From an uncultured Clostridia bacterium (GTDB taxonomy: Bacteria; Bacillota; Clostridia; TANB77; CAG-508): 35,937 bases of DNA. The stretch is from the NCBI GenBank assembly GCA_944388895.1, contig CALXKR010000001.1:1-35937 (forward strand), written 5' to 3'. Below the pieces are notes generated by a model that saw nothing but the letters and a program-made list of their open reading frames with translations, had not been told where the DNA came from and made no database searches. Shown piece after piece: positions 2,551-35,626 of this stretch (within the stretch, counting starts at the first letter, position 1; every line of letters begins with the position of its first letter). Both the position numbers and the translations under genes were made by a program.

Positions 2551-2574
2551 TATGGACTTTCCTCCTATCTTTGG

Positions 2575-3750
2575 TTATATATTTTTCTTAATTACTTTTT
2601 TAGTTGTTTTTTGCTCTCCACTATTTTCTGTATTTCCATCTATTTGCTTTTTACTCTCTTCGTAAAGTTTTTTGCTCATTTCACTTTTATTTTCTTCTAA
2701 TAATTCCAAAGCCCTTTGTTTTATTTTTTGTTCCTTAATTCTTTCTTCCCTTATTTTTTTATCAGCTTCAATAATTCCTTGAGTTGCTAATTTAGTTGCC
2801 TCTTCTTCAATTTGCTTTTCAATTCTAGCCTTTTTCTCTTGCATTACGTCTTTTGCTGTTGAATACAATCTATCGTATTCAGAATTTAATGCATTTTTTA
2901 ATGTATAAACTTCTGAATCATCTCTATTATATGCTACATATAATAATTCCATTAATTCTTCTGAATCAAGTACTTTTGCTGAAACTTCCGCAGAAGCTAA
3001 GGCTCTAATTAATGTTTGTGCTCTTGTATATAATTCTGAAAAAGCTATATCGTTTATTTCTTCTTTTGAATATGTACTTGTATCTCCAAATTCTGAAGTA
3101 TAATATGATAGTACTAGGTATGTTTTTTGTTGTAAAATATTTTTACTTGCATTTAATCTTTCTGTATAGCTTGTAACTGATTCACTATATTCCAATATAT
3201 TTTGTTTTCTTCTTCTCTCAAATTCTAATTTTGAAACAACCTCATTTGCTCCTCTTTTTTTTGCATTTTCAATTTGAGCACTTAGTCTTTCAATTTGATT
3301 TTTTACATCTTGTATTCTGTTATGGTATCCATCGATTAATTCGTCAAAATTTAGTGTTCTTGTTTGAACATACAGTTGAATTGGGTATCTAAGTGTATTT
3401 AAAAATTCTATAAATCCTGATTCCACTGCATTTTTTTCATCTTCTGAAAGTAAGTCATAATTTATTCCTTTGCACTTTAATACCATTACATACTGTTTAC
3501 CATTTTTTCTTACAATCATATTATCTTGTATTTCATCAAATTCCATAAATTCATATATTGAATCTATAACTTTTCCATCTCTTGTAATTAAATTAGGTTT
3601 TGGTTGTTCTTTCTTTTCTTGAGTAGTAGCACTTTGAGGTTCTTGTTTTTTTCTCATTTTATAAATAAGTAATACCGCAACCAATCCAAGCAATAATATT
3701 AAAACTAATATAACTATAAGTAATAAATTAAGTATTTGTATAGTATCCAT
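2575..3750 (-). CDS. T4SS-associated membrane-anchored coiled-coil protein whose N-domain resembles a VirB4 N-terminal domain; no P-loop
   Basis: 391 aa. N-terminal TM (ILNLLLIVILVLILLLGLVAVLLIY), then ITRDGKVIDSIYEFMEFDEIQDNMIVRKNGKQYVMVLKCKGINYDLLSEDEKNAVESGFIEFLNTLRYPIQLYVQT, then K/E-rich coiled-coil sequence. The ATG directly abuts the stop of the upstream gene (3751-3753) with AGGAGG inside that gene. The domain assignment is from my memory of Tn916 Orf16-type N-termini. Confidence 0.45.
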   Translation of the reverse strand: MDTIQILNLLLIVILVLILLLGLVAVLLIYKMRKKQEPQSATTQEKKEQPKPNLITRDGKVIDSIYEFMEFDEIQDNMIVRKNGKQYVMVLKCKGINYDLLSEDEKNAVESGFIEFLNTLRYPIQLYVQTRTLNFDELIDGYHNRIQDVKNQIERLSAQIENAKKRGANEVVSKLEFERRRKQNILEYSESVTSYTERLNASKNILQQKTYLVLSYYTSEFGDTSTYSKEEINDIAFSELYTRAQTLIRALASAEVSAKVLDSEELMELLYVAYNRDDSEVYTLKNALNSEYDRLYSTAKDVMQEKKARIEKQIEEEATKLATQGIIEADKKIREERIKEQKIKQRALELLEENKSEMSKKLYEESKKQIDGNTENSGEQKTTKKVIKKNI

Positions 3751-4176
3751 CTATTTTTCCTCCTTTGTATTATTAGTAATTTTATTTAATAATTTTCCAA
3801 AATTTAAGCTATCCATTTTATTGGCATAGTCTGGTTCTTTTCTAGGTATAGCGTATGTATAAACTTTTTTATTTTTATTGAACAATATATATCTTAAAAT
3901 AATATCGTCTAAAGAATCTCCACCTACATTTTTTGCTAATTTTGTATTTCCTGCTGTTGGCATCTTTATAGTTCCAATTCCATAACCAATTAAACTTAAA
4001 ATTGCAACACATGCTATTCCCACTGGTTTAAGTCCTAGTATAATTCCAAATATAAAGTATAAAATCATCCCAATGAAGGCTCCTATGACAGTATAAATTA
4101 ATGACTTTGCCGTAAAAATATATAAAATTCTACTTTCACCTTTTAAATTATTATTTGGTATATAATAACTACCCAT
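3751..4176 (-). CDS. PrgI/VirB3-like small T4SS membrane protein
   Basis: 141 aa with two adjacent TM helices in the N-terminal half (LIYTVIGAFIGMILYFIFGIILG / VGIACVAILSLIGYGIG). Located upstream of the VirB4 gene and translationally coupled to the next gene. Confidence 0.5.
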   Translation of the reverse strand: MGSYYIPNNNLKGESRILYIFTAKSLIYTVIGAFIGMILYFIFGIILGLKPVGIACVAILSLIGYGIGTIKMPTAGNTKLAKNVGGDSLDDIILRYILFNKNKKVYTYAIPRKEPDYANKMDSLNFGKLLNKITNNTKEEK

Positions 4177-4194
4177 AAAAATTTCCTCCTTTGT

Positions 4195-4584
4195 TTATCC
4201 TAATAAATTATTCATTAAATTTACAAGTATTGTAAAAATTCCAATACCTCCATATATAACTACTGTTGCAATTACAAGCCCTATTAATTTTTGTTTTATA
4301 TCAGCTTTTCCTGATGGATCAGTTAACATATATTTAACTCCTAAATACATAAAACATCCAACCAAAACAACAGAACCAATAGAAATTAATATTTGTCCTA
4401 TTGGTAATAATTTTCCCCATACTTCATCTGTTGTTATTGGTGGATTTTGAGATCCTTGATTTATCCATTCATCTGCTTTATCTTTCATATTTCCAGCAGT
4501 CGTTGCATATGCATTGTTTTCTAATGACAGTAGTATTAAAATTGCACATACAATCATTGTTCCTATTTTTATAATTTTTTTCAT
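4195..4584 (-). CDS. VirB2/TrbC-like T4SS pilin paralogue 1
   Basis: 129 aa. Signal peptide ends ...NNAYA. A variable segment is followed by two TM helices joined by the short charged loop TDPSGKADIKQK. Same architecture as the two paralogues upstream. Confidence 0.6.
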   Translation of the reverse strand: MKKIIKIGTMIVCAILILLSLENNAYATTAGNMKDKADEWINQGSQNPPITTDEVWGKLLPIGQILISIGSVVLVGCFMYLGVKYMLTDPSGKADIKQKLIGLVIATVVIYGGIGIFTILVNLMNNLLG

Positions 4585-4619
4585 AATATACTCCCTATTT
4601 TACATTTATAATTATGTGT

Positions 4620-4649
4620 ATTATATACTTTGCGACATATTATTTTCAA
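4620..4649 (-). promoter_or_regulatory. Sigma-A-type promoter for pilin paralogue 1
   Basis: Minus strand: TTGAAA (4649-4644), 18-nt spacer, TATAAT (4625-4620), about 35 nt upstream of the ATG at 4584. Confidence 0.5.
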
Positions 4650-4665
4650 TAGTTTTTATAAATTT

Positions 4666-5040
4666 TTATTTAATATTTGTTAACGCTAAATTTGAAATTA
4701 TTTGTACAATTCCTCCTGCTGCAAATAGCATTACTGCTCCTACTGCTAAGTATATCATCTTCTTTTTTATTTCAGCCTTTGCATCTGGTGCTGATATCAT
4801 ATATTTAACTCCTGAATACATTAAAATAATAACAGCTGCCCCATAGAAGATAACTTGTAATATCCATAATACTTTACCCCCTATGTCTGAAATTGGATTA
4901 TCTGAAGAATTATATATGTCATCCATATTGCCAGGTAAAGTTATTCCTCCAGCGTAACAATAACTAGTAAAAATACTTCCCAAGATTATTAATAATATTA
5001 CTATAAAAATTACTTTAAACAATATATTTTTTCTGTTCAT
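4666..5040 (-). CDS. VirB2/TrbC-like T4SS pilin paralogue 2
   Basis: 124 aa. Signal peptide ends ...SYCYA. Two TM helices are joined by SAPDAKAEIKKK. The C-terminal ...NLALTNIK is nearly identical to paralogue 3. Confidence 0.6.
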   Translation of the reverse strand: MNRKNILFKVIFIVILLIILGSIFTSYCYAGGITLPGNMDDIYNSSDNPISDIGGKVLWILQVIFYGAAVIILMYSGVKYMISAPDAKAEIKKKMIYLAVGAVMLFAAGGIVQIISNLALTNIK

Positions 5041-5072
5041 TTTTTCTCCTTTTAATTTAACTTATTAAATCT

Positions 5073-5102
5073 ATTATACTATTATTCCTTGCTAGTTTTC
5101 AA
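5073..5102 (-). promoter_or_regulatory. Sigma-A-type promoter for pilin paralogue 2
   Basis: Minus strand: TTGAAA (5102-5097), 18-nt spacer, TATAAT (5078-5073). SD AAAGGAG precedes the ATG at 5040. Confidence 0.5.
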
Positions 5103-5145
5103 GTGTTTTAATGAATTTTAATGCATTAAAACGTGTATTTTTAGT

Positions 5146-5181
5146 AAAAAAAAAATAAGCAATCTTACTTGATTGCTTATT
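5146..5181 (-). terminator. Rho-independent terminator after pilin paralogue 3
   Basis: 11-bp perfect stem AATAAGCAATC / GATTGCTTATT (5154-5164 / 5171-5181) with a 6-nt loop. On the minus strand it is followed by a run of about 9-10 U (plus-strand A run 5146-5155). It starts 8 nt after the stop at 5189. Confidence 0.75.
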
Positions 5182-5188
5182 TGGTTTA

Positions 5189-5548
5189 TTATTTAATATT
5201 TGTTTCAGCTAAATTCTTAATTATTGCTAATATTCCACTAGCTGCAAATAATAATATTGCACCTACAACATATATGATAGCTGTTTTCTTTATTTCTGCT
5301 TTTCCTTCTGGAGATGCTGTTATAAACTTAATACCTACAAATATAAGCATAATAACTGCTGCAGCAAAAGCTATCATTTGTATGATAAATATTACATTTC
5401 CTGTTATGCTATTTATTGAGCTAACTCCTGTACCTCCTGGTTGTACCGCACTTGGAATAGATGCTCCAAGAACTATACTAAAAGCACTTAGGATTGCTGT
5501 TATAATAAATAATACAGATGTTATCTTAGCTAATTTTCTTGTATTCAT
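5189..5548 (-). CDS. VirB2/TrbC-like T4SS pilin paralogue 3 (promoter-proximal; candidate major subunit)
   Basis: 119 aa. Signal peptide ends ...IVLGA. Two TM helices are joined by ASPEGKAEIKKT. Strong SD GAGGAGG. Confidence 0.6.
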   Translation of the reverse strand: MNTRKLAKITSVLFIITAILSAFSIVLGASIPSAVQPGGTGVSSINSITGNVIFIIQMIAFAAAVIMLIFVGIKFITASPEGKAEIKKTAIIYVVGAILLFAASGILAIIKNLAETNIK

Positions 5549-8391: not shown

Positions 8392-9849
8392 TTAGTCTAT
8401 GGTTTGATAAATATCAAAATTTTCTATTTTTCCAATATACTTCATATTTTCTTTTATGTACGTTATTGATTTATCTGAAATTTGAAAAATTTCATTTTTT
8501 TCATCGCTTAATAAAAGAATTTGAGTATTTTTCAATTTTTTTATTTTTTCAAGCAAACCTTTTTCTCCATCTTTACCTAGGTTTCCCTTAAAAGGCCAAT
8601 CATATACGTTATTGTCCAAATCATTCAACGTTAAAGAATAAAATGGTGCATATGTTGAAAAAACAATTGTGTCCTTATTATTATTTTTTATATATTGACT
8701 TACAGTTTCAATTTCTTTTTGTAATTGTTCTTCTATTATTGAACCATAAAAAATTGATGTAGTTTGCATTTGTTTAATATAATTATAAAATCCTAAAGTG
8801 CTTATTATTATCATATATATTGATATTATTAGTATTGCCACTTTTAAGATTATTTTTTGCATTTTTTTCTCTATTATTGGATATACTAAATAGTGTAAAT
8901 CATATGCGACATTAATTAAAAGGCAAATGCATGCCAATTTTAAGTGATAGACATTAAAGATTGGCACTAATAGTATTAATGAACATAGTGAAAATATTAA
9001 CAATATAGTTAATTCTTTTCTTACTTTTTTGCTTTTTTCAATTTTTATTATCACATTATATAACAAAATTGTAATAATTGTGAAGAAAATAAATATACTG
9101 CCTGGTAGCAAAATATTTTTACTAAATACAGTGTTTTCATTTCTAAATTCTGATATTCCAAGCATAGTATAGTTTATAAAATTATATAAATTATTTTGTA
9201 TTAACAAATGCAATAAAAAAAATGTAGTTAATATACCTGCTATAAATAATTGTTTAATTAGTGCTTTTATATTCTTATTATATATTTGGAAAACTGTCAT
9301 GGCTAATAAATATCCTGCTGCTAGTTTTTGATTACTAATAAAAACTAAAAAAAGTATAATTCCTTGAAATATATTTTTATGCCTATCTTCTTCATTTTTT
9401 AAGTTAAATAATAATCCAAGTTCGAAAAAAATATAAGCAAGTACATTATAATTTGCTCCTGCTTGGGCAATTTCAGATGTAAAAAGCATAATTAGTAAAG
9501 TATATAATAAAGATGCTTGTTTAGTTATTTTTAATGTTTTTAATATTTTATAGCATAACACATATAGTATAGTCATTAATATTAGATTATATACTCTATA
9601 AACTAAGAAATTACTGCCTAATATACCAAGAAATATTTTTCCTATATAAAAAAATAGCGGAGTTATAATTACATTGGTATCTTTATATATAGTTAAGCCA
9701 TTTGCCATTTTATAGGTATTTAAAAAATTTATTAGTTCGTCATTATTTGTTAAAAATATATTAAATACATTTGAGAGTAGTATTATAGCTATTAGCATTG
9801 TTATTAGTAATATATCATGTTTTTTTAAACTTTGAATTGCTTTTTTCAT
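8392..9849 (-). CDS. Polytopic membrane protein, possible GT-C fold (GT39/ArnT-like) glycosyltransferase
   Basis: 485 aa with about 11-12 hydrophobic helices, an acidic DE pair in the first loop (TNNDELINF) and a C-terminal soluble domain of about 110 aa. No clear SD precedes the ATG at 9849. Function is tentative. Confidence 0.45.
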   Translation of the reverse strand: MKKAIQSLKKHDILLITMLIAIILLSNVFNIFLTNNDELINFLNTYKMANGLTIYKDTNVIITPLFFYIGKIFLGILGSNFLVYRVYNLILMTILYVLCYKILKTLKITKQASLLYTLLIMLFTSEIAQAGANYNVLAYIFFELGLLFNLKNEEDRHKNIFQGIILFLVFISNQKLAAGYLLAMTVFQIYNKNIKALIKQLFIAGILTTFFLLHLLIQNNLYNFINYTMLGISEFRNENTVFSKNILLPGSIFIFFTIITILLYNVIIKIEKSKKVRKELTILLIFSLCSLILLVPIFNVYHLKLACICLLINVAYDLHYLVYPIIEKKMQKIILKVAILIISIYMIIISTLGFYNYIKQMQTTSIFYGSIIEEQLQKEIETVSQYIKNNNKDTIVFSTYAPFYSLTLNDLDNNVYDWPFKGNLGKDGEKGLLEKIKKLKNTQILLLSDEKNEIFQISDKSITYIKENMKYIGKIENFDIYQTID

Positions 9850-13290: not shown

Positions 13291-13339
13291 AAAAAAGAGT
13301 ATTTTCGAAAAATGATTTTTTCAAAAATACTCTTTTTTT
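13291..13339 (-). terminator. Rho-independent terminator after the sortase gene
   Basis: Long AT-rich hairpin GAGTATTTTCGAAAAA-TGA-TTTTTTCAAAAATACTC with one bulge, flanked by A6 and T7 runs. It touches the stop codon at 13338-13340. Confidence 0.7.
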
Positions 13340-17145: not shown

Positions 17146-17276
17146 AATTTCTTCCTTTATCTTATAGTTATACAATTATATTTTATATTATATTAGGATA
17201 AAAATCAAGAAAATTTGATTAGTTTTTATGTAACTTTTTTCTAATACTATTTTAAATTTTTTAGTTGTGTAATTTT

Positions 17277-17318
17277 AAAAAACCTACATGTTTTTAAATT
17301 AAAACATGTAGGTTTTTT
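17277..17318 (-). terminator. Rho-independent terminator after ftsH
   Basis: 14-bp perfect stem AACCTACATGTTTT / AAAACATGTAGGTT (17281-17294 / 17301-17314) flanked by A and T runs. Confidence 0.8.
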
Positions 17319-17326
17319 AATTTTAT

Positions 17327-19132
17327 TTACATTTCTTCAAATATATTGTCAAACTCTTCTCCAGTAATCTTTTCTTTTTCTACTAAAATTGTAGCAACTT
17401 TGTCTAACTTGTCTCTATGTTCACTTAGTATAGCTTTTGCTTCAGAATAAGCACTGTCTATAATGCGTTTGATTTCTTCATCAATAATACCTGCTGTTTC
17501 TTCAGAGTATGATTTTTCTTGTCCCCAGTCTCTTCCAATGAACACTTCATCTTGATCAGAACCCAATGTAATTGTTCCTATTCTTTCACTCATACCGTAT
17601 TTTGTAACCATAGCTTTTGCTATTTGTGTTGCTCTTTCTATGTCATTACTTGCTCCAGTTGAAATATCTCCTAACACTAATTCTTCTGATGCTCTACCAC
17701 CTAATAAAGATACTATGTTTTCAAGCATTTCTGTTTTAGATATAAATGATTTATCTTCTGTTGGTCTATACATTGTATATCCTCCAGCCATTCCTCTAGG
17801 AATAATTGATATTTCATGTACTGGATCTTGAGTTTTTAAATATCTACTTACTACCGCGTGACCGCCTTCATGATAAGCAACTAATTTCTTTTCTTTGTCG
17901 CTTCTTACTCTTGTTTTCTTTTCTGGACCCATAGTTACTTTAACCATGGCATCTTCTATTTCTCTTTCTCCTATTTCAGATTTATCTCTTCTGGCTGCTA
18001 AAAGAGCTGCTTCATTAAGCACGTTTTCCAAGTCTGCTCCTGTAAATCCCGAAGTATTTTTTGCAATAATGTTTAAGTCTACATCACTTGCTAATCTTTT
18101 CTTTTTAGCATGAACTTCTAATATTTGTTCTCTTGCCTTTACATCTGGGGCTGGAACTACAATTTGTCTGTCAAATCTTCCTGGTCTAAGTAAAGCTTTA
18201 TCTAATACGTCAGGTCTGTTTGTTGCAGCTAATACTATAACACCTTCATTTGCTGAAAATCCGTCCATTTCAACAAGCATTTGGTTTAATGTTTGTTCTC
18301 TTTCATCATGTCCTCCGCCAAGACCTGCACCTCTTTGGCGTCCAACTGCGTCTATTTCATCTATAAATATTATACATGGTGAATTTCTTTTTGCTTCTTC
18401 AAATAAATCTCTTACTCTTGAAGCACCAACACCAACGAACATTTCAACAAAGTCTGAACCACTTATAATAAAGAATGGCACTCCTGCTTCTCCAGCAACT
18501 GCTTTAGCAAGCAGTGTTTTTCCTGTTCCTGGTTGACCAACTAATAAAACACCTTTAGGAATTCTTGCTCCCATGTCTGTAAACTTCTTAGGATTTTTCA
18601 AAAATTCAACTATTTCTTGTAATTCTTCTTTTTCTTCATCAATACCTGCTACATTTGCAAAAGTAACTTTATTTCTATCATTTGCACTTATCATTCTTGC
18701 TTTACTTTTTCCGAATGTCATTGTTCCTTTTTGTTGTCCTCCAGCTCCTCCTAAGAAAAGCATAGCCATAAGTACAAGCAATAAAATTGATGATATTGGT
18801 AGTAATAAGTCTGATACAACTAATAAAAATGATTTATCTGCTTCTACAACATTTATAGTATTTTCTTTCATAGAACTATTTAAATTTTCCATTAAATTGT
18901 CTACGCTTGGTATATTTACATTTTTAATATTAGAATCATTTTTTAATTTTACTCTAGCACTTGCACCACCATATTCTATTTCTATATCTGTAACTTCACC
19001 AGCTTGAATTTTTGTTAGTAGTTCTGAATATGTTAGCTCTTTATTTGATCCATTTAATAATGCTGGTATTACAAATAATAATATAATTCCTATAATCAGC
19101 CAAACGGCTAAAGTTTTAATACTGTTCTTCAA
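17327..19132 (-). CDS. ftsH: ATP-dependent zinc metalloprotease FtsH
   Basis: 601 aa. N-terminal TMs, AAA+ Walker A GQPGTGKT, Walker B IIFIDEID, zinc motif HEGGH. The start codon is TTG (19132-19130), preceded by AGGAGG. Confidence 0.95.
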
Positions 19133-19261: not shown

Positions 19262-20260
19262 TTAGGTTAAGGGCGTAAAAATAATTTTTTTATTTTTTAT
19301 GCTTACTTTTAAGTTTTTATTTACTATTGTGTATTTATTTCCAATATTTCGCCTGCTCATTTCAATTATGTCATCTATGTTTACTTTTTGTATATTTCTA
19401 GTGGTTCCCAGCAACTTTTGTATAACATATAATATTAAATTTTGTCTTATATTTATTGGTAAATTATTAAATGAATTTACTTCTAACTCTATTTTCCCTA
19501 GAGATTCACTGCCTATTTTATTATATATATTCTCTACTTCTTTATTTATGTATGTATTTTCATTTTTTACAATTTTAGATAGCCTACTTAAATTTTGAAC
19601 AATATTAGGGTTTAATTCTTTTAAGTATGGAAGTAACTCATTTCTTATTTTGTTTCTTTTATATATATTTTCTTTATTTGTATAATCTATTCTTGGGTTT
19701 AATTTGTTTTTTTCGCAATATGCTTCTATTTCTTCTCTTTTACAATTAATTAATGGCCTTATATATTTATTATACTCTTTAGGTTGTATTCCTTCTAACC
19801 CTGAAAGTCCACATCCCCTAATTAAGTTAAGAAGAACTGTTTCTGCATTATCATTCATATTATGTGCTATTGCTATTTTATTTGCACTTTCTTTTTTAGC
19901 TATCTCATCAAAAAAAGCATATCTTACTATTCTTCCTGTTTCTTCTTCTCCTCTTTTTTCTTTTTCTGCTAATTTTATAATATCTGCTCGCTTAATATAA
20001 CACTTAATTTTCATTTCTTTGCATACATTTTCCACAAATTGTTCATCTTCTGTGGAATCTTTTCGAATTAAATGGTTAATATGTGCAACTACAATTTCAT
20101 ATCCTAACTTTTCTTTGTATTTATTTAAACAATATAAAAGAGTAATAGAGTCGGGGCCTCCTGATACCCCAACTACTATTTTATCTCCTTTTTCAATTAA
20201 ATTATTATCTTTAATGGTATTCAAAAAATTTTCTTCCAAAGAATCCAAACGAGTAGCCAT
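19262..20260 (-). CDS. tilS: tRNA(Ile)-lysidine synthase, short form
   Basis: 332 aa. PP-loop SGGPDS. Found upstream of ftsH as in many Bacillota, although no hpt gene lies between them here. Confidence 0.85.
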   Translation of the reverse strand: MATRLDSLEENFLNTIKDNNLIEKGDKIVVGVSGGPDSITLLYCLNKYKEKLGYEIVVAHINHLIRKDSTEDEQFVENVCKEMKIKCYIKRADIIKLAEKEKRGEEETGRIVRYAFFDEIAKKESANKIAIAHNMNDNAETVLLNLIRGCGLSGLEGIQPKEYNKYIRPLINCKREEIEAYCEKNKLNPRIDYTNKENIYKRNKIRNELLPYLKELNPNIVQNLSRLSKIVKNENTYINKEVENIYNKIGSESLGKIELEVNSFNNLPINIRQNLILYVIQKLLGTTRNIQKVNIDDIIEMSRRNIGNKYTIVNKNLKVSIKNKKIIFTPLT

Positions 20261-20269
20261 ATTTCCTCC

Positions 20270-20459
20270 TTTTTTGATTAGGGACGTTCCTTAATCGAAA
20301 AAAATATTTTATAAATCAAAATTTATTTTTTTCGAAGTAAGGACGCGCAGTTTGGAGCCCCCTTTAGTGGGGCGACAGCAAGGAACACGGAGAAAAGAAT
20401 AAAATTTGTTGATAAATTTATTAATAATTTTCGATTAAGGAACGTCCCTAATCAAAAAA
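20270..20459. repeat. 190-nt element with 32-bp perfect terminal inverted repeats and a GC-rich core; structured RNA or MITE-like element of unknown family
   Basis: 20270-20301 (TTTTTTGATTAGGGACGTTCCTTAATCGAAAA) is the exact reverse complement of 20428-20459. The interior has imperfect AT-rich pairing plus a GC-rich core containing the hairpin GCCCC-CTTTAGT-GGGGC (20357-20373). The repeat is seen directly; its function is unknown. Confidence 0.6.
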
Positions 20460-21785
20460 TTAACCTTTATATTTATTTGCAAATTTTGTATAACTTGGCA
20501 TCCATAATAGTTCTACGGTTCCTGTTGGTCCGGCTCTATGTTTTGCAATAATTACTTCTGCAATATTTTTTGCTTCTGATTCTGGATTATAGTAATCATC
20601 TCTATATAAAAACATTACTATATCCGCATCTTGCTCTATTGATCCTGATTCACGTAAGTCTTGAAGCATAGGTCTATGGTCTGGTCTTGCTTCTGGTGCA
20701 CGTGATAATTGTGAAAGTGCCAATACTGGTACATTTATTTCTTTTGCAAGTATTTTTAAGGATCTACTTATTTCTGCTATTTCTTGCTCTCTACTTTTAG
20801 TATTACCACTACCTTGAATAAGCTGTAAGTAGTCTATTACTACTAGCCCTATATTTTTTTCTAGCTTTAGCTTTCTACATTTTGCTCTTATTTCAGCTAT
20901 ATTTATTCCCGCACTATCGTCAATAAATATTCCTGCAGATTCTGAAAGTTCTCCTGAAGCTATTGCCAGCTTTGACCATTCTTCATCTGTAATGTCTCCT
21001 TTTGCAACTTTTTCACTATCTACCATAGCTTGGGCACACAAAATTCTGTTTGCACACTGTTCTTTTGACATTTCGAGACTAAATATTACTACTGGTGTAT
21101 TTGCATTTACTGCTGCATTTGTTGCAACATTAAGTACAAATGCAGTTTTTCCCATAGCAGGTCTTGCTGCTATTAGTACTAAGTCTGAGTTATGAAATCC
21201 TGCAGTTTTATTGTCTAAATCTATAAATCCTGATGCAACACCTGTTATATGTTGCTTTTGATTATATAATTGCTCTAATTCTGTAAAAGAATCTACTAAT
21301 ATATCTCTTATTGATGCATAACCTTTTTGTGATTTTCTTTGCATTAAATCAAATATCTTTTTTTCAGCACTATCCATTAATATTTCTACTTCTTCATTTT
21401 GATTATATCCTATTTCTATTAATTGATTAGCTGTTTTTATTAAACTTCTTAAAATAGATTTTTCTTCTACTATTTTAATATATTTTTCAACATTTGCTGT
21501 TGTTGGAACTTTTTCAGGAAGTGATACCAAATATTCAAGTCCTCCAACTGCTTCAAGCTTTCCAAGTGAAGTTAATTCATCTTTTAAAGTAATTATATCT
21601 ATTGGTTCTGCTTTTGCATATAAGTTCATAATTGCTTGATATATTGTTTTGTTATCTTCTCTATAAAAATCTTCTGGTTTTAATACTTCCATTGCAGATA
21701 TAACTGCATCTTTATCTGTCATCATACTTCCAATTACAGCTTGCTCTGCTTCATCGTCATGTGGTGGTACTTTTCCTAATTCCAT
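20460..21785 (-). CDS. dnaB: Replicative DNA helicase
   Basis: 441 aa. N-terminal PPHDDEAEQAVIGS, Walker A ARPAMGKT, and the typical DnaB C-terminal RecA-like domain. Confidence 0.95.
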   Translation of the reverse strand: MELGKVPPHDDEAEQAVIGSMMTDKDAVISAMEVLKPEDFYREDNKTIYQAIMNLYAKAEPIDIITLKDELTSLGKLEAVGGLEYLVSLPEKVPTTANVEKYIKIVEEKSILRSLIKTANQLIEIGYNQNEEVEILMDSAEKKIFDLMQRKSQKGYASIRDILVDSFTELEQLYNQKQHITGVASGFIDLDNKTAGFHNSDLVLIAARPAMGKTAFVLNVATNAAVNANTPVVIFSLEMSKEQCANRILCAQAMVDSEKVAKGDITDEEWSKLAIASGELSESAGIFIDDSAGINIAEIRAKCRKLKLEKNIGLVVIDYLQLIQGSGNTKSREQEIAEISRSLKILAKEINVPVLALSQLSRAPEARPDHRPMLQDLRESGSIEQDADIVMFLYRDDYYNPESEAKNIAEVIIAKHRAGPTGTVELLWMPSYTKFANKYKG

Positions 21786-21803: not shown

Positions 21804-22250
21804 TTATTCTCCAATTACATGTACTTTTAATTTTCCTACAACGCCCTCATATAATTTTAAGTCTACTACAAATATTCCTGTAGTTTTAATTGTTTCTTTT
21901 AAATCTACTTTCTTTTTATCTACATCAAATTTATATTGTTTTTTTAATTGTTCAGATATTTCTTTTGCAGTAACTCCACCAAAAATCTTTCCATTTTCTC
22001 CAGCTTTTACTTCTATTTTAAGCATAATATTTTCTATTTTTTTGCTTAATTTTTCTGCTTCGTCTTTTTCTACCATTTTTTTATGAGCGTTTGCATCTTG
22101 CTTTGATTTAAGCTTTGCTAAATTTTGAGCATTTGCTTCTACTGCTAAATTTTTTGGTAATAAAAAGTTTCTTGCATAACCATCATTGGCATTTATTATT
22201 TCGTCCTTTTTCCCTACACCTTTTACATTATCTAACAATATTACTTTCAT
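21804..22250 (-). CDS. rplI: 50S ribosomal protein L9
   Basis: 148 aa. [15 protein letters not shown]...[10 protein letters not shown] is the canonical L9 N-terminus. Confidence 0.95.
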
Positions 22251-22296: not shown

Positions 22297-24330
22297 TTAG
22301 TTCTCTATCTCAAAGAAATATTCATTTATTCTATTAATAAGCTCTTGCTTAGCATCTTCCATACTCATGCCTTCAACTTGTGCACCAGCAAGTGTAATAT
22401 GTCCTCCGCCACCAAGTTTTTCTAGTATTAGCTGAACATTTATTCCACCTATTGATCTACCGCTAATATATATTTTTTCACCGGTTTTTCCTAGTACAAA
22501 TGAAGCATTTATTCCACCTATTGTTAATAATTCATCTGCTGCCTTTGCTGCTATAATATTAGCATTTTGGTCATTATCTTCATAAGTAGAAATTGCTATT
22601 GTATCATTTACTATTTCAGATTTAGCAACAATGTCTGCAATTACTTGATATGTTTCTAAATCACTTTGGAACCATTTTTTTACTTTTATTATATCTAATC
22701 CGCATCTTCTTAAATAAGCTGCTGCTTCAAAAGTTCTTACACCTGTTTTGAATGTAAAGCTTTTTGTGTCTAGCATAATACCTGCATATAATGCTTCAAC
22801 CTCTAACTGAGTAAGTTCTACATCTATTTGTGAATATTCTAAAATTTCAGTGACTAATTCTGATGCAGATGATGCATAAACTTCATGGAAAGTTAGTATA
22901 GCGTTTTCTATGTAATCTGTGCTTCTTCTATGGTGATCTATTACAACAATTTTACTTACTTTATCTAATAATTCTGGTGCTTCTACATAAGTTGTTTTAT
23001 GAGTATCTACTATTATAAGTAAAGTATTTGGTTTTATAATATCTAAAGCTTCTTGTTTTGTTACAAATGCTTCTGTATATTCCCCTGATTTTTTAGCTGC
23101 CATTAAAAAGTTATCTATTCCAATTCCAGTTGTTTCATTAACAATTTTTGCTTCTTTTCCAAGAGTTTTTGTTAATCTATATAAACCTAAAGCTGATCCA
23201 ATAGAATCCATATCTCCATTACTATGTCCCATTAGTAAAACATTATCAGCTTCTCCAATAAGCTCTGTTAATGCATGTGATACCATTCTTGCTTTTACTT
23301 TTGTCCTTTTTTCAACTTCTTGAGTTCTTCCTCCAAAAAATTGATATCTACCATCCATTTTAACAATAGCTTGGTCTCCACCTCTACCTAAAGCTATATC
23401 TATTACAGTTCTTGCTGAAGTAGCTTTTTCAGCATTTGTTTCTCCATCATCTGAAAAACCAATACTTAGTGTAGGTCTTGTAATATCTGGTATGTCTATG
23501 TCTTTTACTTCATCTAAAATATTAAATTTGTCTTTTTCTGCTTCTTCTAAATACTTTTGTTCCATTATACAGAAAAAAGTATCTCTGTCAGATTTAACAA
23601 TTAGAGAATTGTATTTTGCTCCCCATTCATAAATATATTTTTCCATTTTAGCAACTAGTTGTGGCTTTATTTCACTAGATATTCTTTGGCTGATTTCTTC
23701 ATAATTGTCTATCATAATAATACCAATACAAATATCTGATTCTTTTTGTTTTTGTTCTAATTTTTTTAAATAAGTTTCATCTATAAAGTATAAAATTGTA
23801 GTATACTCTTGCTCTTTTAAATGAGCTTTATGTGATTTTACATATGACCCCATTACTTTATAATCTTTATTTTCTATTTTAATATTAGTTTCTATTCTTC
23901 CTTTAACTTTATCTTGTTTGTTATCTTCAGAATTTTCTATTGTTAATTTTATTCCTTTTACAATTTCAGTTAAATATTCATTCATATTAATATTTAGATT
24001 TTCAAATTCTGTAACAAACTTTTCGCTTTTCCAAATAACATTTCCGTTTGTTTCAACTATTGTTAATGGAAATGGCGAATTTATTAAAGTTGTTTTTGCA
24101 GTAGTATTTACATTTAAAGTTAAGTCTTTAAGCTGTTCAGATAACTCTGCTTTTCTTTTTTTGTTTGTCCAAATTGTATACCAAATGATTAAGGCATAAA
24201 TAATTATGCCCGGTAATATTAATTTATAGTTTAGTATGCATATTGATATTATTAAAATTGCTATTATTATTAAATATATTTTTGTTCTTGATATGAATGT
24301 CTCCCAATTTTTATAATTGTTATTCGGCAT
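22297..24330 (-). CDS. gdpP: GdpP/YybT-type DHH/DHHA1 cyclic-di-AMP phosphodiesterase
   Basis: Two N-terminal TMs, central PAS/degenerate GGDEF-like region, DHH motif (VVIDHHRRS) and DHHA1 GGGH (LGGGGH). Synteny is gdpP-rplI-dnaB. The start is uncertain: the track uses GTG at 24351, and I prefer ATG at 24330, preceded by GGGGAGA. Confidence 0.85.
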   Translation of the reverse strand: MPNNNYKNWETFISRTKIYLIIIAILIISICILNYKLILPGIIIYALIIWYTIWTNKKRKAELSEQLKDLTLNVNTTAKTTLINSPFPLTIVETNGNVIWKSEKFVTEFENLNINMNEYLTEIVKGIKLTIENSEDNKQDKVKGRIETNIKIENKDYKVMGSYVKSHKAHLKEQEYTTILYFIDETYLKKLEQKQKESDICIGIIMIDNYEEISQRISSEIKPQLVAKMEKYIYEWGAKYNSLIVKSDRDTFFCIMEQKYLEEAEKDKFNILDEVKDIDIPDITRPTLSIGFSDDGETNAEKATSARTVIDIALGRGGDQAIVKMDGRYQFFGGRTQEVEKRTKVKARMVSHALTELIGEADNVLLMGHSNGDMDSIGSALGLYRLTKTLGKEAKIVNETTGIGIDNFLMAAKKSGEYTEAFVTKQEALDIIKPNTLLIIVDTHKTTYVEAPELLDKVSKIVVIDHHRRSTDYIENAILTFHEVYASSASELVTEILEYSQIDVELTQLEVEALYAGIMLDTKSFTFKTGVRTFEAAAYLRRCGLDIIKVKKWFQSDLETYQVIADIVAKSEIVNDTIAISTYEDNDQNANIIAAKAADELLTIGGINASFVLGKTGEKIYISGRSIGGINVQLILEKLGGGGHITLAGAQVEGMSMEDAKQELINRINEYFFEIEN

Positions 24331-24405
24331 TTTTCTCCCCATTTTCTGCACTATTGTTATATTGTTTTATACAATAATACATTATATATTGTACTATTTT
24401 TATAG

Positions 24406-25308: not shown

Positions 25309-26484
25309 TTATCTGTCAACATCTTCATCACCTTGATAATTTCTGTTTGGTAATTTTCTTTCTTTTTGATATCTTTCTTCAAATTCTTCTGCTTTTTTAG
25401 ACCAATATATATTTTCTTGTCCTTCTTTATAAAAAAAGTCAGTATCAATTATTACAAATTCTCCTTTTTCTAAAATGCCATCCACAATTTCTTTATCAAA
25501 CCCTATTGAGTTGTGTGCAACATCCATCTCTATTCCATTTAATGTTGGTCTATTTCTTCTTTTAAGTTTTCCTATATTTTCCCATCTAATATCAGTCCAA
25601 ATAATACCGTCTGATCTTAATTCTTTGTACATTTTGTACAATATTTCTGAATTTTTTTCTTCTTCTTTTATTTCAGTATCTACTTCATCATTAATTTCTA
25701 TACAAAATATGTCTTGCCCATCTTCTGCAAAATTTATTCTTGTTAAGGGTTGTAATATTCTTCTATGGTTTGGCATATTATAATTTTCTCTAACAGTTCC
25801 TATTTTTAAAATTTTTTCTCCTATTTTATATGCATTACTAAATTGTCCATTACCACAAAAGTCAATATCTATATATTTTTTATTTTCGCTTTTTAGTAAT
25901 TCATCTATTATAATAGCTAATGTTTTGGAATAGTTTTTAGCGGCTTTTTGCTTTGTTCCATTTTGCGGAATATATAATGTTTCCATTCCTACATTTTTAT
26001 TTAACAAACCTTCTGCAATTTTTTCTTTGTGTTTTACAAGTAACTCATTTAAAGTTTCATCTATCTCTTGATTTTTGTTTTTTAAAACTTGTGCTACATC
26101 AAATAGAAAATCAAAACCTACCTTCTTTGATAACTCCTCTATATTTTCTAGTAAAAAGCTAAAATTACTATTTGAGCTTTCAGCAAAAGCCTTATAAAAA
26201 TTTTGTAAATTATAATTATCTTTATCTCTTATTCTTTTTATAATTTGCAAAAAATTATCTTTAATTTTATCACCAAATGCTTCATATTCTAGGCATTCTT
26301 TAATAAAATAAAAGAATAAATTATCATCAATAGTATTTAATATTTCATCAAAATTGTTTATTATTATTTGTTTAGAATTTTTAGAACTATTACTTAACAT
26401 TTTTAGTATTTCATTATATGCTAGTCTTGGTTTTACTTTTCTTAAAATTCTAATTTTTTTCAAGAATATTTCTTCTTCTTTCAC
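25309..26484 (-). CDS. Uncharacterised protein: helical N-domain of about 200 aa plus a minimal protein-kinase-like fold
   Basis: 391 aa. Gly-loop-like CGNGQFSNAYKIG, Lys in KILKIG, catalytic-loop-like TDIRWENIG (D-x4-N), DFG-like IIDTDF. GTG start preceded by AGGAGA. The fold call rests on motifs only. Confidence 0.45.
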   Translation of the reverse strand: MKEEEIFLKKIRILRKVKPRLAYNEILKMLSNSSKNSKQIIINNFDEILNTIDDNLFFYFIKECLEYEAFGDKIKDNFLQIIKRIRDKDNYNLQNFYKAFAESSNSNFSFLLENIEELSKKVGFDFLFDVAQVLKNKNQEIDETLNELLVKHKEKIAEGLLNKNVGMETLYIPQNGTKQKAAKNYSKTLAIIIDELLKSENKKYIDIDFCGNGQFSNAYKIGEKILKIGTVRENYNMPNHRRILQPLTRINFAEDGQDIFCIEINDEVDTEIKEEEKNSEILYKMYKELRSDGIIWTDIRWENIGKLKRRNRPTLNGIEMDVAHNSIGFDKEIVDGILEKGEFVIIDTDFFYKEGQENIYWSKKAEEFEERYQKERKLPNRNYQGDEDVDR

Positions 26485-26502
26485 TATCTTCTCCTATTTT
26501 AT

Positions 26503-26535
26503 AAAAAAGACACACTTTTTAGGTGTGTCTTTTTA
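26503..26535 (-). terminator. Rho-independent terminator after rpoC
   Basis: Stem AGACACAC / GTGTGTCT (26508-26515 / 26523-26530), extended by A/T runs on both sides. It starts directly after the stop at 26536. Confidence 0.75.
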
Positions 26536-29500
26536 TTAATACTTCTTTAATGCTTCTTTTAAGTTTTCTTTTTCAGCTCCAGACTCAACTTTTTCAGTAT
26601 TAATATGTGTATTTTGGTATCTTGACATACCAGTTCCTGCTGGAATTAATTTACCAATAATAACATTTTCTTTTAATCCTATTAAGTCATCTGTTTTTCC
26701 TTTAATTGCTGCTTCAGTTAAAACTTTAGTTGTTTCTTGGAATGATGCAGCTGATAAGAAACTATCTGTTGCAAGAGCTGCTTTTGTAATACCTAGTAGA
26801 ATTCTCTTTCCTGTAGCTGGAGTCTTTCCTTCTGCCTCTAGTTCTTTATTGATAATTTCTAAGTCATTTATATCTACTAAAGAACCTGGAAGTAAGTTAC
26901 TATCTCCATTATCTTCTATTCTTACTTTTTTAAGCATTTGTCTTGCTATAACCTCAATGTGCTTGTCATTAATATCAACACCTTGATTTCTATATACCTT
27001 TTGAATTTCTTGTACTAAATATTCGTGAACACCTTCAGGTCCTTTTATCAATAATATTTCATTAGGATTAATTGAACCTTCAGTAATTGGATCACCAACT
27101 TCTATATTATCTCCTTCTTGAACACATAATTTAGCACCAAATGGTATTGAATAAGTTTTTGCATTATCTTTACTAATTACTGTAACTTCTTTCTTTTTCT
27201 TTTCTTCTGAAATTTTTACAGTACCTTCTATTTCTGAGATTATTGCTAATCCCTTTGGTTTACGAGCTTCGAAAAGCTCCTCAACTCTTGGAAGACCTTG
27301 TGTTATATCTGCAACACCGGCAACACCACCAGAGTGAATAGTTCTCATTGTAAGCTGTGTACCTGGTTCACCTATTGATTGTGCAGCTATTGTTCCAACT
27401 GCTTCACCAATTGTAATAAGTTCACGTGTTGCTAAGCTCATACCATAACATTTAGCACAAATTCCATGTTTTGTTTTACAGTTAAGTGGAGAACGTACAA
27501 CTACTCTTTCAATTCCAGCATCAACTATCTTTTTAGCTACTTTTTCTGTAATTAATTTATCAGTTGTAGCTAAAACTTCTCCTGTTTCAGGATGTTTAAT
27601 ATCATTTAATGGATATCTACCAATTAATCTTTCTTGTAAGCTTTCAATTACTTGATTTCCATCTTTAATTGCATATACTTCTAGTCCTTCATGAGTACCA
27701 CAATCGTCTTCTCTTATAATTAAGTCTTGTGAAACGTCAACTAATCTTCTTGTTAAGTAACCAGAGTCAGCTGTTCTTAAAGCTGTATCAGAAAGTCCTT
27801 TACGTGCACCATGTGCAGAAATGAAGTATTCTAGAGCATCTAGACCTTCACGGAATGAAGATTTAATTGGAATTTCAACTGTTTTACCAGTTGTACTTGC
27901 CATAAGACCACGCATACCAGCAACTTGTCTTAACTGGCTTATGTTACCACGGGCTCCAGATTTTGACATCATAAATATTGGATTTAAATTGTCAAAATTA
28001 TTTTGCATAGCTGTAGCTACTTTGTCTGTAGCCTTTTCCCATATTTTAATAACATTTGCATATCTTTCATTATCTGTTATTAAACCACGAGCATATTGTT
28101 TTGTAACTTTATCTACTTCTTCTTGAGCTTCTGCTAAATCTGCAGCTTTTTCTTCTGGTACTTTAACGTCATCTATAGAAACAGTCATACCAGCAGTTGT
28201 ACAATGTTTGTATCCTGTTGATTTAATGTAATCAAGAAGTGTTGCTGTTCTGTCTAATCCATGTACATCTATACATTTTGCAATTATTTGTTTTAATTGT
28301 TTTTTAGCAGTTGTAAAGTTAATTTCTGGTTCAAATTTGTTTTCTGGTTTAGTTCTATCAACAAAACCTAAATCTTGTGGAATTCCTTTATTGTATATAA
28401 TTCTTCCAACAGTTGTTTCTATCATACCATGATCTATTTCTTTTCCATGTTCATCTACTTCTGCCATTCTTATATGAACTTTTGCATGAACACCTAAATC
28501 ATGGTTTGCATATGCCATTTCTGCTTCTTCTGGAGAAGAGAAATACATTCCTGCTCCTAATGTTCCTTTTCTTACTTGTTCTTCATAAGAATCATCAGGA
28601 TCTGCTTCTACTTCCATTGTTAAATAGTAAGCACCTAAAATCATATCTTGTGATGGTTCTGTTATAGGCTCACCATCTGTAGGTTTTAACAAGTTATTTG
28701 TTGAAAGCATTAAATATCTTGCTTCTGCTTGTGCTTCTGGTGATAATGGTAAGTGAATAGCCATTTGGTCACCATCAAAGTCAGCGTTAAATGCTGTACA
28801 AACTAATGGATGAAGTTTTATAGCTCTACCTTCAACTAATACTGGTTCAAATGCTTGAATACCAAGTCTGTGAAGTGTAGGAGCACGGTTTAGCATTACT
28901 GGGTGATCTTTTATAACATCTTCTAATACTTCCCATACTGCTGGATCTAATCTTTCTACCATTCTTTTTGCATTTTTAATGTTATGTGCTAAGTTTCTAG
29001 CAACTAATTCTTTCATAACAAATGGTTTAAATAATTCAACAGCCATTTCTTTAGGAACACCGCATTGGTAAATTTTAAGTTCTGGTCCAACAACTATAAC
29101 TGAACGTCCTGAATAGTCAACACGTTTTCCTAGTAAGTTTTGACGGAATCTACCTTGTTTTCCTTTTAATAGGTCTGATAAAGATTTTAAAGCTCTTCCA
29201 CCAGCACCTGTTACTGGTCTACCACGTCTTGAGTTGTCAATTAGTGCATCTACTGACTCTTGTAACATTCTTTTTTCGTTTCTTACAATTATTTCTGGTG
29301 CACCTAATTCTAATAATCTCTTTAATCTGTTATTTCTGTTTATAACTCTTCTATATAAATCATTTAAGTCTGATGTAGCAAATCTACCACCATCTAATTG
29401 TACCATTGGTCTTAAATCTGGTGGAATAACTGGTACTACATTCATTATCATCCATTCAGGTCTATTTCCTGATTGTCTAAATGAATCAACTGTATCTAGT

Positions 29501-34432: not shown

Positions 34433-35626
34433 TTACTTCCACATATACAGCGGCTTTAGCCCATCAAGCACTACAAATACAAAGCTGAACGGAAACCGTC
34501 CGCGGCTGTCCGAATAGTCGGGATCGTCGGCGCTGTAGCGAGAAGACGCTGGACCGTAAGAACCTGAATCGTTGTAACCGCCCCCTCGAGTCACACGGTA
34601 GTCAGTGGAGTCCGCTTCCATTGTCCATTCCCAAACATTTCCTGCTAAGTCATATATGTTTTTTACTCGGTAATTATCACTTGAACCACATGTTTTTTTA
34701 CTAACAGTATAATTTCCTTTTCCTGTTGAATTTGCTACATATGAACTTGATGTATCACATGTTGAAGTTTTATATGCTGGGTCTATCCAAGCCATTATTT
34801 CATCCCACTGAGTTCCATATATTAATGTACTTGTTACTCCGTAAGTATTTTTATCTGTATACATTCCTTTTGATTTTGCTACTGCTCCATCTGTTCCTAT
34901 TTCTGTCATACTTGTTCCCCATGGTACATCTACCCAAGGATTTGCTCCTTTTTTACTTACTACTTTTCCATTCTCATTTCCAGCTTCAAATCTTGCTACA
35001 TAAAATCCTTTATTTTTTTCTACACTTGCTTTCATAGCGTTATATTCTTCTACTTCACTTGGATATCTAGAACCTTCTGGTGCTGGTTCATAATAACTTG
35101 AAATTGATTGTGTCGAACCATTATAGTAACTAGGATATCTCTTAAATTCACTAAAATTCTCCACTGGCACCCATACAAATTGATTTCCTACTAGTCCATC
35201 TGCTGGTATATTGGCTTGGTCTGGGTGGCTCTCTTTTGAATATTTATTTTCGTCTGCTTTTGCGTCAGATATTACTATTCCATCATTTTTTGTTCCACCT
35301 ACATAGTAGAATCCTTTTGGTATTGTTACGCCCTCTACTTGGGTTTGATTTCCACCACCTTGGCTTCCGCCATTTCCATTCATATATTCATCCAAGAAAT
35401 TTGATACCTTATCTATTTCATCTTGTTCATTTTTACTTGCTTCTTCCCATTTTTGTGTTGCATTCTGGGCTCTTGTAAATATTCCGTTATTTCCTATTGT
35501 TAAATTTATTGCTACTGCTGCTAATATTAGTAAAACTATTATTGTTACTACAAGTGCTATTAATGTTATGCCTTTTGCTTCTTTTTTTATCTTTTTAATG
35601 TCTAATATTTTCCTATTATTTTTCAT
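34433..35626 (-). CDS. Pilin-like N-terminal anchor plus FGE/SUMF1 (C-type-lectin fold) domain surface protein; the 3' end looks frameshifted relative to the family end-motif
   Basis: 397 aa. N-terminus is KGITLIALVVTIIVLLILAAVAINLTIGNNGIFTRA, which is prepilin-like but has Ala instead of Glu at +5. The FGE-domain hallmark DLAGNVWEWT...RVTRGGGY is present. ATG with AAGGAGG SD. Confidence 0.8.
   Translation of the reverse strand: MKNNRKILDIKKIKKEAKGITLIALVVTIIVLLILAAVAINLTIGNNGIFTRAQNATQKWEEASKNEQDEIDKVSNFLDEYMNGNGGSQGGGNQTQVEGVTIPKGFYYVGGTKNDGIVISDAKADENKYSKESHPDQANIPADGLVGNQFVWVPVENFSEFKRYPSYYNGSTQSISSYYEPAPEGSRYPSEVEEYNAMKASVEKNKGFYVARFEAGNENGKVVSKKGANPWVDVPWGTSMTEIGTDGAVAKSKGMYTDKNTYGVTSTLIYGTQWDEIMAWIDPAYKTSTCDTSSSYVANSTGKGNYTVSKKTCGSSDNYRVKNIYDLAGNVWEWTMEADSTDYRVTRGGGYNDSGSYGPASSRYSADDPDYSDSRGRFPFSFVFVVLDGLKPLYMWK
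34448..34618 (-). other. GC-rich, adenine-poor block at the 3' end of the FGE-domain gene; candidate DGR variable region
   Basis: The composition switches abruptly just after the WEWTME codons. The coding strand is rich in NNC codons (GAC, TAC, AGC, GCC, CCC, CGC) in a genome that otherwise prefers A/T-ending codons. No matching template repeat occurs in this window. Confidence 0.5.

Follow-up and report, generated by a model that had tools for sequence, protein, structure and literature searches.

The DNA analyzed here (the window, a single stretch of 35,937 nucleotides with ~29% G+C) comes from an uncultured, low-GC gut Clostridium for which the nearest GTDB genomes, for example, those of Clostridium sp. 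CAG:440 and Candidatus Merdicola, show at most 78% DnaB identity. All the genes in the window that encode products of at least 100 aa with a family match are located on the minus strand and, in the region of interest, follow the order gdpP, rplI, dnaB, tilS, ftsH and then a class B PBP gene. The spacer between dnaB and tilS is filled by an element of 190 bp (20270-20459) that consists of two arms and a centre with a GC-rich core (Table 1).

Table 1. Genes, arms and predicted signals at and around the dnaB-tilS junction (L-numbers denote the contigs and loci used for comparison)
Feature	Position	Strand	Basis or remark
gdpP	22297-24351	-	Pfam/NCBIfam
rplI	21804-22250	-	Pfam/NCBIfam
dnaB, replicative helicase, upstream gene of the unit	20460-21785	-	Pfam DnaB, DnaB_C (2e-109); NCBIfam TIGR00665
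dnaB stop codon	20460-20462	-	adjoins the end of the right arm (20459)
dnaB-proximal (right) arm, 15-3-15 near-palindrome	20428-20459	.	exact 32-nt inverted repeat; adjoins the dnaB stop codon
Terminator-like site: arm hairpin followed by a TTATTAATAA tail	20418-20458	-	loose scan; consensus match only
Candidate invertible segment	20302-20427	.	centre of L088 is the reverse complement of the L103 and L104 centres
GC-rich conserved core with strand asymmetry and a 5-bp GC hairpin	20332-20397	.	composition; identity in L100
Weak promoter-like site TCGAAA-18-TAAAAT (spacing also read as 17/18), facing tilS	20306-20335	-	9 of 12 positions match
tilS-proximal (left) arm	20270-20301	.	exact reverse complement of the other arm; adjoins the tilS Shine-Dalgarno sequence
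tilS ribosome-binding site (GGAGG, 20265-20269) and ATG (20258-20260)	20258-20269	-	read from the sequence
tilS, tRNA lysidine(34) synthetase, first gene downstream of the element	19262-20260	-	PF01171 (5.7e-57); TIGR02432 (8.2e-61)
ftsH, second gene downstream of the element	17327-19132	-	Peptidase_M41, AAA and FtsH_ext domains
Clear terminators of the genome, A-tract/stem/T-tract	17270-17325, 13291-13338, 26499-26539		

Comparison of the minus-strand ORFs of at least 100 aa across the 36-kb window with Pfam and NCBIfam revealed no recombinase, transposase or reverse transcriptase (RT) domains, in agreement with the first-pass annotation of this DNA, which had reported neither an RT nor a transposase next to the element; Y1 transposase/RAYT genes were likewise not seen in the window, and ARAGORN detected no tRNA or tmRNA genes in it. 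Elsewhere on the minus strand, amid housekeeping genes, the region 604-5548 encodes a TraG/VirB4-like P-loop ATPase, two ORFs without a family match and three tandem paralogous T4SS-pilin (PF18895/TrbC-like) genes, and may be what is left of a conjugation or secretion system, or a locus for a pilus. Five minus-strand ORFs of 141-485 aa, within 2575-4176, 8392-9849, 25309-26484 and 34433-35626, have no Pfam match; four of these (all except 3751-4176) were also scanned with NCBIfam, with the same result.

The two 32-nt arms of the element, separated by 126 nt, are perfectly complementary, as had been read from the letters in the first-pass annotation, and the window contains no other long perfect inverted repeat. 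In 100 sequences simulated with a first-order Markov model of the window, the maximum length of a perfect inverted repeat within about 460 nt ranged from 11 to 17 nt, so that the observed repeat lies well beyond the simulated maximum of 17 bp. The predicted fold of the whole element is highly stable on both strands (-68.6 kcal/mol, z = -8.5, on the minus strand; -74.4 kcal/mol, z = -10.0, on the plus strand) and includes, as had been proposed, AT-rich imperfect pairing that lengthens the helix inward of the arms. The centre folded alone is only modestly structured (z = -2.3 and -2.7). The GC-rich core described previously is well delimited, with 56% G+C compared to ~29% in the window, and contains the expected 5-bp GC hairpin with a 7-nt loop (GCCCC/GGGGC). 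The right arm directly abuts the dnaB stop codon, as annotated; the left arm was thought to be separated from the tilS Shine-Dalgarno sequence by 1 nt but the actual gap is 0 nt.

Each arm is itself a near-palindrome that consists of two 15-nt half-sites (TTTTTYGATTARGGA) flanking a 3-nt centre and self-complementary at 13 of the 15 positions; on the minus strand, the dnaB-proximal arm reads TTTTTTGATTAGGGA-CGT-TCCTTAATCGAAAA, followed by A. The element accordingly contains four half-sites in the layout -> <- ... -> <-, and the window has no other exact match to the half-site TTTTYGATTARGGA; two further matches, with 2 mismatches each, are at chance level. On the sense RNA, the dnaB-proximal arm alone is predicted to fold at -13.3 kcal/mol (z = -4.5), and a terminator scan flagged both arms as hairpins on their own. 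The polarity of the arms is T-tract/stem/A-tract, opposite to that of the clear terminators of this genome. The complementarity between the arms is Watson-Crick throughout, with zero G-U pairs, which is more typical of constraint at the DNA level. The arm centre GGACGTTCCT may partly resemble the core of the Bacteroides Mpi repeats (putatively ARACGTWCGT). Arms and core were also compared, by eye, with sigma-54 promoters, CIRCE, CtsR, LexA, parS, CodY, cre, dif and hix sites, none of which fit.

The signals that can be recognized in the centre are weak and depend on its orientation. The 66-nt core contains 23 C and 14 G, such that in the orientation found in the window, the sense RNA is C-rich and G-poor (15 C against 7 G, and 21 C against 13 G, in 60-nt windows of the sense RNA) and becomes G-rich once the segment is flipped. 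The arm hairpin with the tail UUAUUAAU passes a loose scan for intrinsic terminators but has an AT-rich stem and the polarity opposite to that of the terminators of the genome; in the sense strand, this terminator-like site is present only in the orientation of the window, and in the flipped contig described below (L088), the tail is antisense and lies beside the other arm. No canonical terminator was detected in either orientation. Promoter-like sites in the region are not more numerous than expected from shuffled sequences, and the site that faces tilS falls below the threshold of the tool in L104 and L088, both of which have TAAGAT. The promoter-like and terminator-like sites, which are matches at the consensus level, swap strands when the segment is inverted, as does the C/G skew of the core. 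Two tiny ORFs are found in the core, one of 16 codons on the plus strand (20339-20392) with a TTG start and AAGGA upstream, and another of 21 codons on the minus strand (20323-20388) with a GTG start and without a Shine-Dalgarno sequence; the core is invariant among the sequences found.

Searches for RNA families and for additional copies of the element were negative. At gathering thresholds, Rfam 15, including the 6S family, yielded zero matches in the whole window; in a relaxed search of 20150-20600, with E-values up to 10, the only matches were plant miRNA-precursor and sRNA models aligned to the stem, the best score being 38 bits for plant miRNA precursor models with a 140-bit threshold. 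No second copy of the element is present in the 36-kb window, and scans with up to 4 mismatches for the arm and up to 2 for the half-site, in the window and all the fetched loci, returned nothing beyond this locus and that of one relative, L089. Exact-pattern scans with the arm (GATTARGGACGTTCCYTAATC) gave 0 matches each in the GTDB genomes (one per species), the JGI metagenomes and IMG/VR, those with the core (GTCGCCCCACTAAAGGGGGCTCC) gave 0 matches in the JGI metagenomes and IMG/VR, and blastn with the element against PLSDB and INPHARED (GenBank phages) found no match. The flanks (...GGTTAA | element | GGAGGAAAT...) contain no direct repeat, that is, there is no target-site duplication. The terminal inverted repeats notwithstanding, the suggestion that the element is a MITE finds little support, given the lack of a target-site duplication and of a second copy in the window or in the five public collections.

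To place the element in an evolutionary context, we compared the dnaB-tilS junction across relatives. The element is absent from 80 GTDB loci encoding DnaB relatives, in which blastn-short produced only AT-rich noise. In most of the loci where dnaB is adjacent to tilS, the two genes overlap or are separated by no more than ~50 nt, and the remaining junctions hold unrelated insertions. Because most of the spacers are short and the others carry varied insertions, the comparison of these sequences indicates that insertions have repeatedly targeted this junction in the clade, making it a hot spot, and that the short spacer is ancestral. The long spacers, of 540-1765 nt, are those of L003, L006, L012, L022, L024, L033, L026 and L043. 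In L012, the spacer contains a YhgA/Transposase_31 gene with a long KEEKVAQ/KEKDIT repeat tail; in L006, a HepT-like/nucleotidyltransferase (MNT) toxin-antitoxin pair; in L003, an Amidase_2 gene; and in L022, L024 and L033, members of an unannotated family of proteins of 114-136 aa. In Clostridium sp. CAG:440 (L019:5336-6338, FR898635.1), a gene for a 249-aa Y1_Tnp/IS200-like (RAYT-like) protein lies between dnaB and tilS and is preceded, directly after the dnaB stop codon, by two tandem REP-like palindromes, TTGCCA-N17-TGGCAA; the sequences of these repeats are unrelated to the arms of the element. In another contig (L087:1-266, ERZ28614405 scaffold_48038), an AbrB/MazE-like gene runs straight into the interior of dnaB, a junction that probably reflects chimeric assembly of the metagenome and not a real rearrangement.

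Closer to the window, the junction appears in several states. The first-pass annotation had proposed examining whether the spacer is empty in close relatives, and such is the case in some of them: lineages with 78-79% TilS identity have spacers of 30-33 nt. In one at 80% (L089:2424-2500, ERZ16268232 scaffold_278), the spacer is 77 nt long and consists of the arms without the 126-bp centre. It comprises two arm-like dyads of 31 nt that are 2 nt apart (TTTTCAATTTAGGACGGTCCTTAATTAAAAA, TA, TTTTCAAAAAAGGACCGTCCTAAATTGAAAA) and are predicted to form a 22-bp perfect stem (-33.1 kcal/mol, z = -7.9). Compared with the arms of the window, 6 of the 22 stem positions differ, with both arms changed together, so that complementarity is perfect in each species. 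The complete element was identified in L100, a relative with 87% TilS identity, where it is 96.4% identical over 164 nt, and the core is 100% identical; the tilS genes of the two are 85.2% identical overall and 70.3% identical at third codon positions. Because the element is so much more similar than the third codon positions of tilS, this comparison indicates that it is either under purifying selection or has been recently exchanged. The spacer of a relative with 77% DnaB identity (L008:4115-4211) contains AATTGGGGACGTTTCCTTATGAG, which resembles the arm sequence GATTAGGGACGTTCCTTAATCG and may be a decayed arm relic or a convergent hairpin.

Within the species, the element was found in 15 contigs from different metagenomes that are 98.6-99.2% identical to the window. 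The segment between the arms measures 126 bp in the window; most strains have 125 bp at this place. The orientation is that of the window in 14 contigs, namely, 13 with full-length copies and L118, which lacks the outer 10 nt of one arm but otherwise carries the complete element. In the remaining contig, L088 (ERZ28614524 scaffold_22980, sample SAMEA6814609), the arms and flanks are unchanged but the centre is inverted: it is identical to the reverse complement of the L103 and L104 centres, down to the A-to-G SNP that these two carry. The element is internal to this 4.2-kb contig, with ~2 kb of collinear flank on each side. L088 retains the T5/A6 asymmetry of the outer arm edges, which places the break points inside the arms. 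Furthermore, L088 differs from every other strain at 14-19 sites in dnaB and 3-12 sites in tilS and therefore represents an independent strain within the ordinary diversity of the species rather than a reshuffled copy. Another contig, L111, assembled with SPAdes, begins precisely where the tilS-side arm meets the centre, the kind of break that a branch of the assembly graph would produce, although this is only a hint. The comparison is one between samples, with a single flipped contig, rather than between cells of one population; on this footing, it indicates that the element occurs naturally in both orientations, with the break points in the repeats. Of the three options offered in the first-pass annotation, namely, a structured non-coding RNA (ncRNA), an RNase III processing stem and a MITE, none corresponds to what the comparative data show, and inversion of DNA was not among them. 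The argument from the perfect arms to symmetry at the DNA level nevertheless pointed in the right direction.

The best reading, although there is about as much to be said for it as against it, is that the element is a small invertible DNA cassette (inverton) of the type found at flgB and cwpV of C. difficile, here embedded in the rplI-dnaB-tilS-ftsH transcription unit, which is an unusual, housekeeping context. In its favour are the exact inverted repeat, the near-palindromic build of each arm, the inverted centre of L088 with break points inside the arms and long collinear flanks, the start of L111 at an arm edge, the similarity of the element in L100, the likeness to the flagellar switch of C. 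difficile and the strand change of the terminator-like and promoter-like sites. Programmed, recombinase-driven switching is plausible, at an evenly balanced level of confidence, and rests on the one flipped contig; we infer that the inversion would depend on a recombinase, be reversible and have a regulatory output. Several considerations count against an invertible cassette: only 1 of the 15 contigs is flipped; the 36-kb window contains no recombinase gene among the ORFs compared; the promoter-like site is weak and at chance level, and canonical terminators are missing in both orientations; tilS and ftsH are housekeeping genes and, as such, unusual targets of phase variation; and, judging from the arms-only allele of L089, the arms may serve some purpose without the centre.

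Under the proposed mechanism, the 126-bp segment would flip between two identical 32-bp sites in inverted orientation and thereby alter the signals met by transcripts between dnaB and tilS-ftsH. In the common orientation, the sense strand would present the arm hairpin with a U-rich tail, then a C-rich, G-poor tract and the weak promoter-like site directed toward tilS; in the flipped orientation, all three signals would face away, and the tract would be G-rich. The tilS and ftsH genes were presumably co-transcribed with dnaB ancestrally, because the spacers of the sister lineages are too short to accommodate a tilS promoter. By analogy with cwpV and flgB, orientation could then set whether expression of tilS-ftsH is insulated from the dnaB operon or coupled to it, and such a switch would tune this coupling rather than fully shut off the essential tilS-ftsH genes. 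A 32-bp perfect duplex is predicted in the read-through RNA for both orientations and, judging from the modelled fold, would be a plausible RNase III substrate in either. It is possible, if rather unlikely, that a recombinase-driven phase switch between the helicase gene and the essential tilS-ftsH pair generates subpopulations that differ in FtsH and TilS dosage or in antisense transcription into dnaB; if so, the recombination sites would be older than the cargo, an order of events suggested by the arms-only allele in the sister lineage L089.

The element could, more tentatively, belong with REPIN-, BIME- or Correia-like sequences, in which case two REP-like hairpin units, inverted around a conserved core, would act at the RNA level and the flip would be accidental. 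Such an element would have been inserted or grown at the hot-spot junction, its duplex serving as an RNase III substrate, a 3' stabilizer or an attenuator that separates the dnaB and tilS messages, and the flipped allele would be an infrequent by-product of recombination or of replication template-switching between the perfect arms. Several observations are consistent with this scenario: the arms are an inverted doublet of imperfect palindromes predicted to form a hairpin, and the element in its entirety, which adjoins a stop codon within an operon, is predicted to adopt a long rod shape; L089 retains the arms only, with a perfect stem that has changed at 6 of 22 positions without loss of complementarity in either species; the junctions of relatives carry varied insertions, including the Y1/IS200-like transposase of CAG:440 beside REP-like palindromes; and published properties of Correia elements and REPINs fit. 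However, the element is present in a single copy in 36 kb, with no other arm or half-site in the fetched loci except for L089; neither arm nor core has matches in the GTDB-genome, JGI-metagenome, IMG/VR, PLSDB and phage collections; and there is no target-site duplication. In addition, the all-Watson-Crick arms, free of G-U pairs, point rather to a constraint on DNA, and the conserved, strand-asymmetric 66-nt core is needless for a role as an RNA stem. An RNase III or stabilizing stem, by itself, also leaves unexplained the presence of the centre in both orientations.

It is improbable that the flipped centre of L088 arose during assembly and that the element is a conserved palindromic spacer, such as a terminator or an operator pair, fixed in one orientation. 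There is indeed a single flipped contig, and the inverted repeats visibly disturb assemblies, with the Logan contigs L083, L084 and L100 and the ENA contigs L111 and L118 ending in or at the element; the ends of the Logan contigs are uninformative because an inverted repeat of 31-32 bp breaks k = 31 graphs regardless of inversion. Nevertheless, misassembly of L088 is unlikely because the arms, at 31-32 bp, are shorter than the reads and the usual final k-mers, and, from what is inferred about assemblers, a flipped path would need junction k-mers derived from flipped molecules. Moreover, the flipped segment matches base for base and includes a SNP that is also found in other strains, and the dnaB and tilS differences of L088 mark it as an independent strain. 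A stand-alone gene for a structured ncRNA (6S-like or Y-like, as the first-pass annotation had considered) transcribed from the spacer is very improbable, the strong predicted fold and conserved core notwithstanding, given that no Rfam family reaches the gathering score on either strand and the relaxed matches cover the stem only, that the centre alone folds modestly, that no convincing pair of promoter and terminator surrounds the element, and that a discrete RNA gene would not be expected to lie either way round while the arms stay in place.

Known invertons are located mainly upstream of genes for surface structures, motility, restriction-modification and signalling. If the element is indeed a conserved invertible cassette at the boundary of dnaB and tilS-ftsH, it would extend phase variation to essential housekeeping functions in uncultured gut Clostridia; should it, moreover, act as a phase switch, core proteostasis and translation, rather than surface structures, would vary in a gut Clostridium with a reduced genome. 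The locus also offers a compact natural series, from the empty spacer through the arms-only allele to arms with cargo facing either way, from which the origin of such switches could be traced. If, instead, the element acts at the RNA level, it would be a single-copy, selected, REPIN-like element of operon punctuation, which is of more modest interest.

Comparison with known systems helps to delineate what is distinctive in this element. Correia elements (CREE) of Neisseria are roughly 100-150 bp long and consist of a conserved core between terminal inverted repeats; they can give rise to promoters, and RNase III binds or cleaves them in transcripts. The element described here shares the terminal inverted repeats and the conserved core, but CREE are high-copy MITEs with TA target duplications, neither of which is seen here, and a core that inverts while the arms stay in place is not among the traits that define CREE. 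REPINs are inverted doublets of REP sequences that form hairpins and are extragenic, often located just past stop codons. The likeness to REPINs and BIMEs is that of two imperfect palindromes in inverted arrangement with a spacer between them, predicted to form a long hairpin after a stop codon. However, REPINs occur in tens to hundreds of copies along with a RAYT, whereas here there is one copy, with no RAYT in the window and no copy in the public collections, and the spacer holds a conserved GC-rich core.

A different set of parallels is provided by site-specific recombination. The core sites of recombinases (hix/gix, loxP/FRT) consist of paired inverted half-sites around a short centre, and two such sites in inverted orientation lead to inversion of the intervening DNA, as with the Hin/Gin serine invertases and the loxP/FRT-type tyrosine recombinases. 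The arms of the element are similarly built, with inverted half-sites around a short asymmetric centre, and there are two of them in inverted orientation. The dyad axis of each arm falls on a base (15-3-15 or 13-7-13), which fits a 7-bp overlap of the tyrosine type better than a 2-bp core of the serine type.

Close precedents are found in C. difficile. The flagellar switch Cdi4, with 154 bp between 21-bp inverted repeats, and the cwpV switch Cdi1 are both inverted by the tyrosine recombinase RecV, the gene for which lies elsewhere, as is often the case for inversion switches of this kind. Both Cdi4 (flgB), which acts in a Rho-dependent manner, and Cdi1 (cwpV), with an orientation-specific terminator, regulate expression after transcription initiation. 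The element analyzed here differs from Cdi4 in that its arms are longer, perfect and internally dyad-symmetric, without sequence similarity to the Cdi4 repeat, and from both switches in that the downstream genes are the housekeeping tilS and ftsH rather than genes for surface or signalling functions. It resembles both in its architecture, a short segment (here 126 bp) between inverted repeats (here 32 bp) in transcribed DNA just upstream of an ORF. The resemblance to Cdi4 extends to the type of evidence: Cdi4 was first recognized when the sequence of one strain matched only after the segment had been reverse-complemented, and here, too, it is one strain that carries the inverse sequence.
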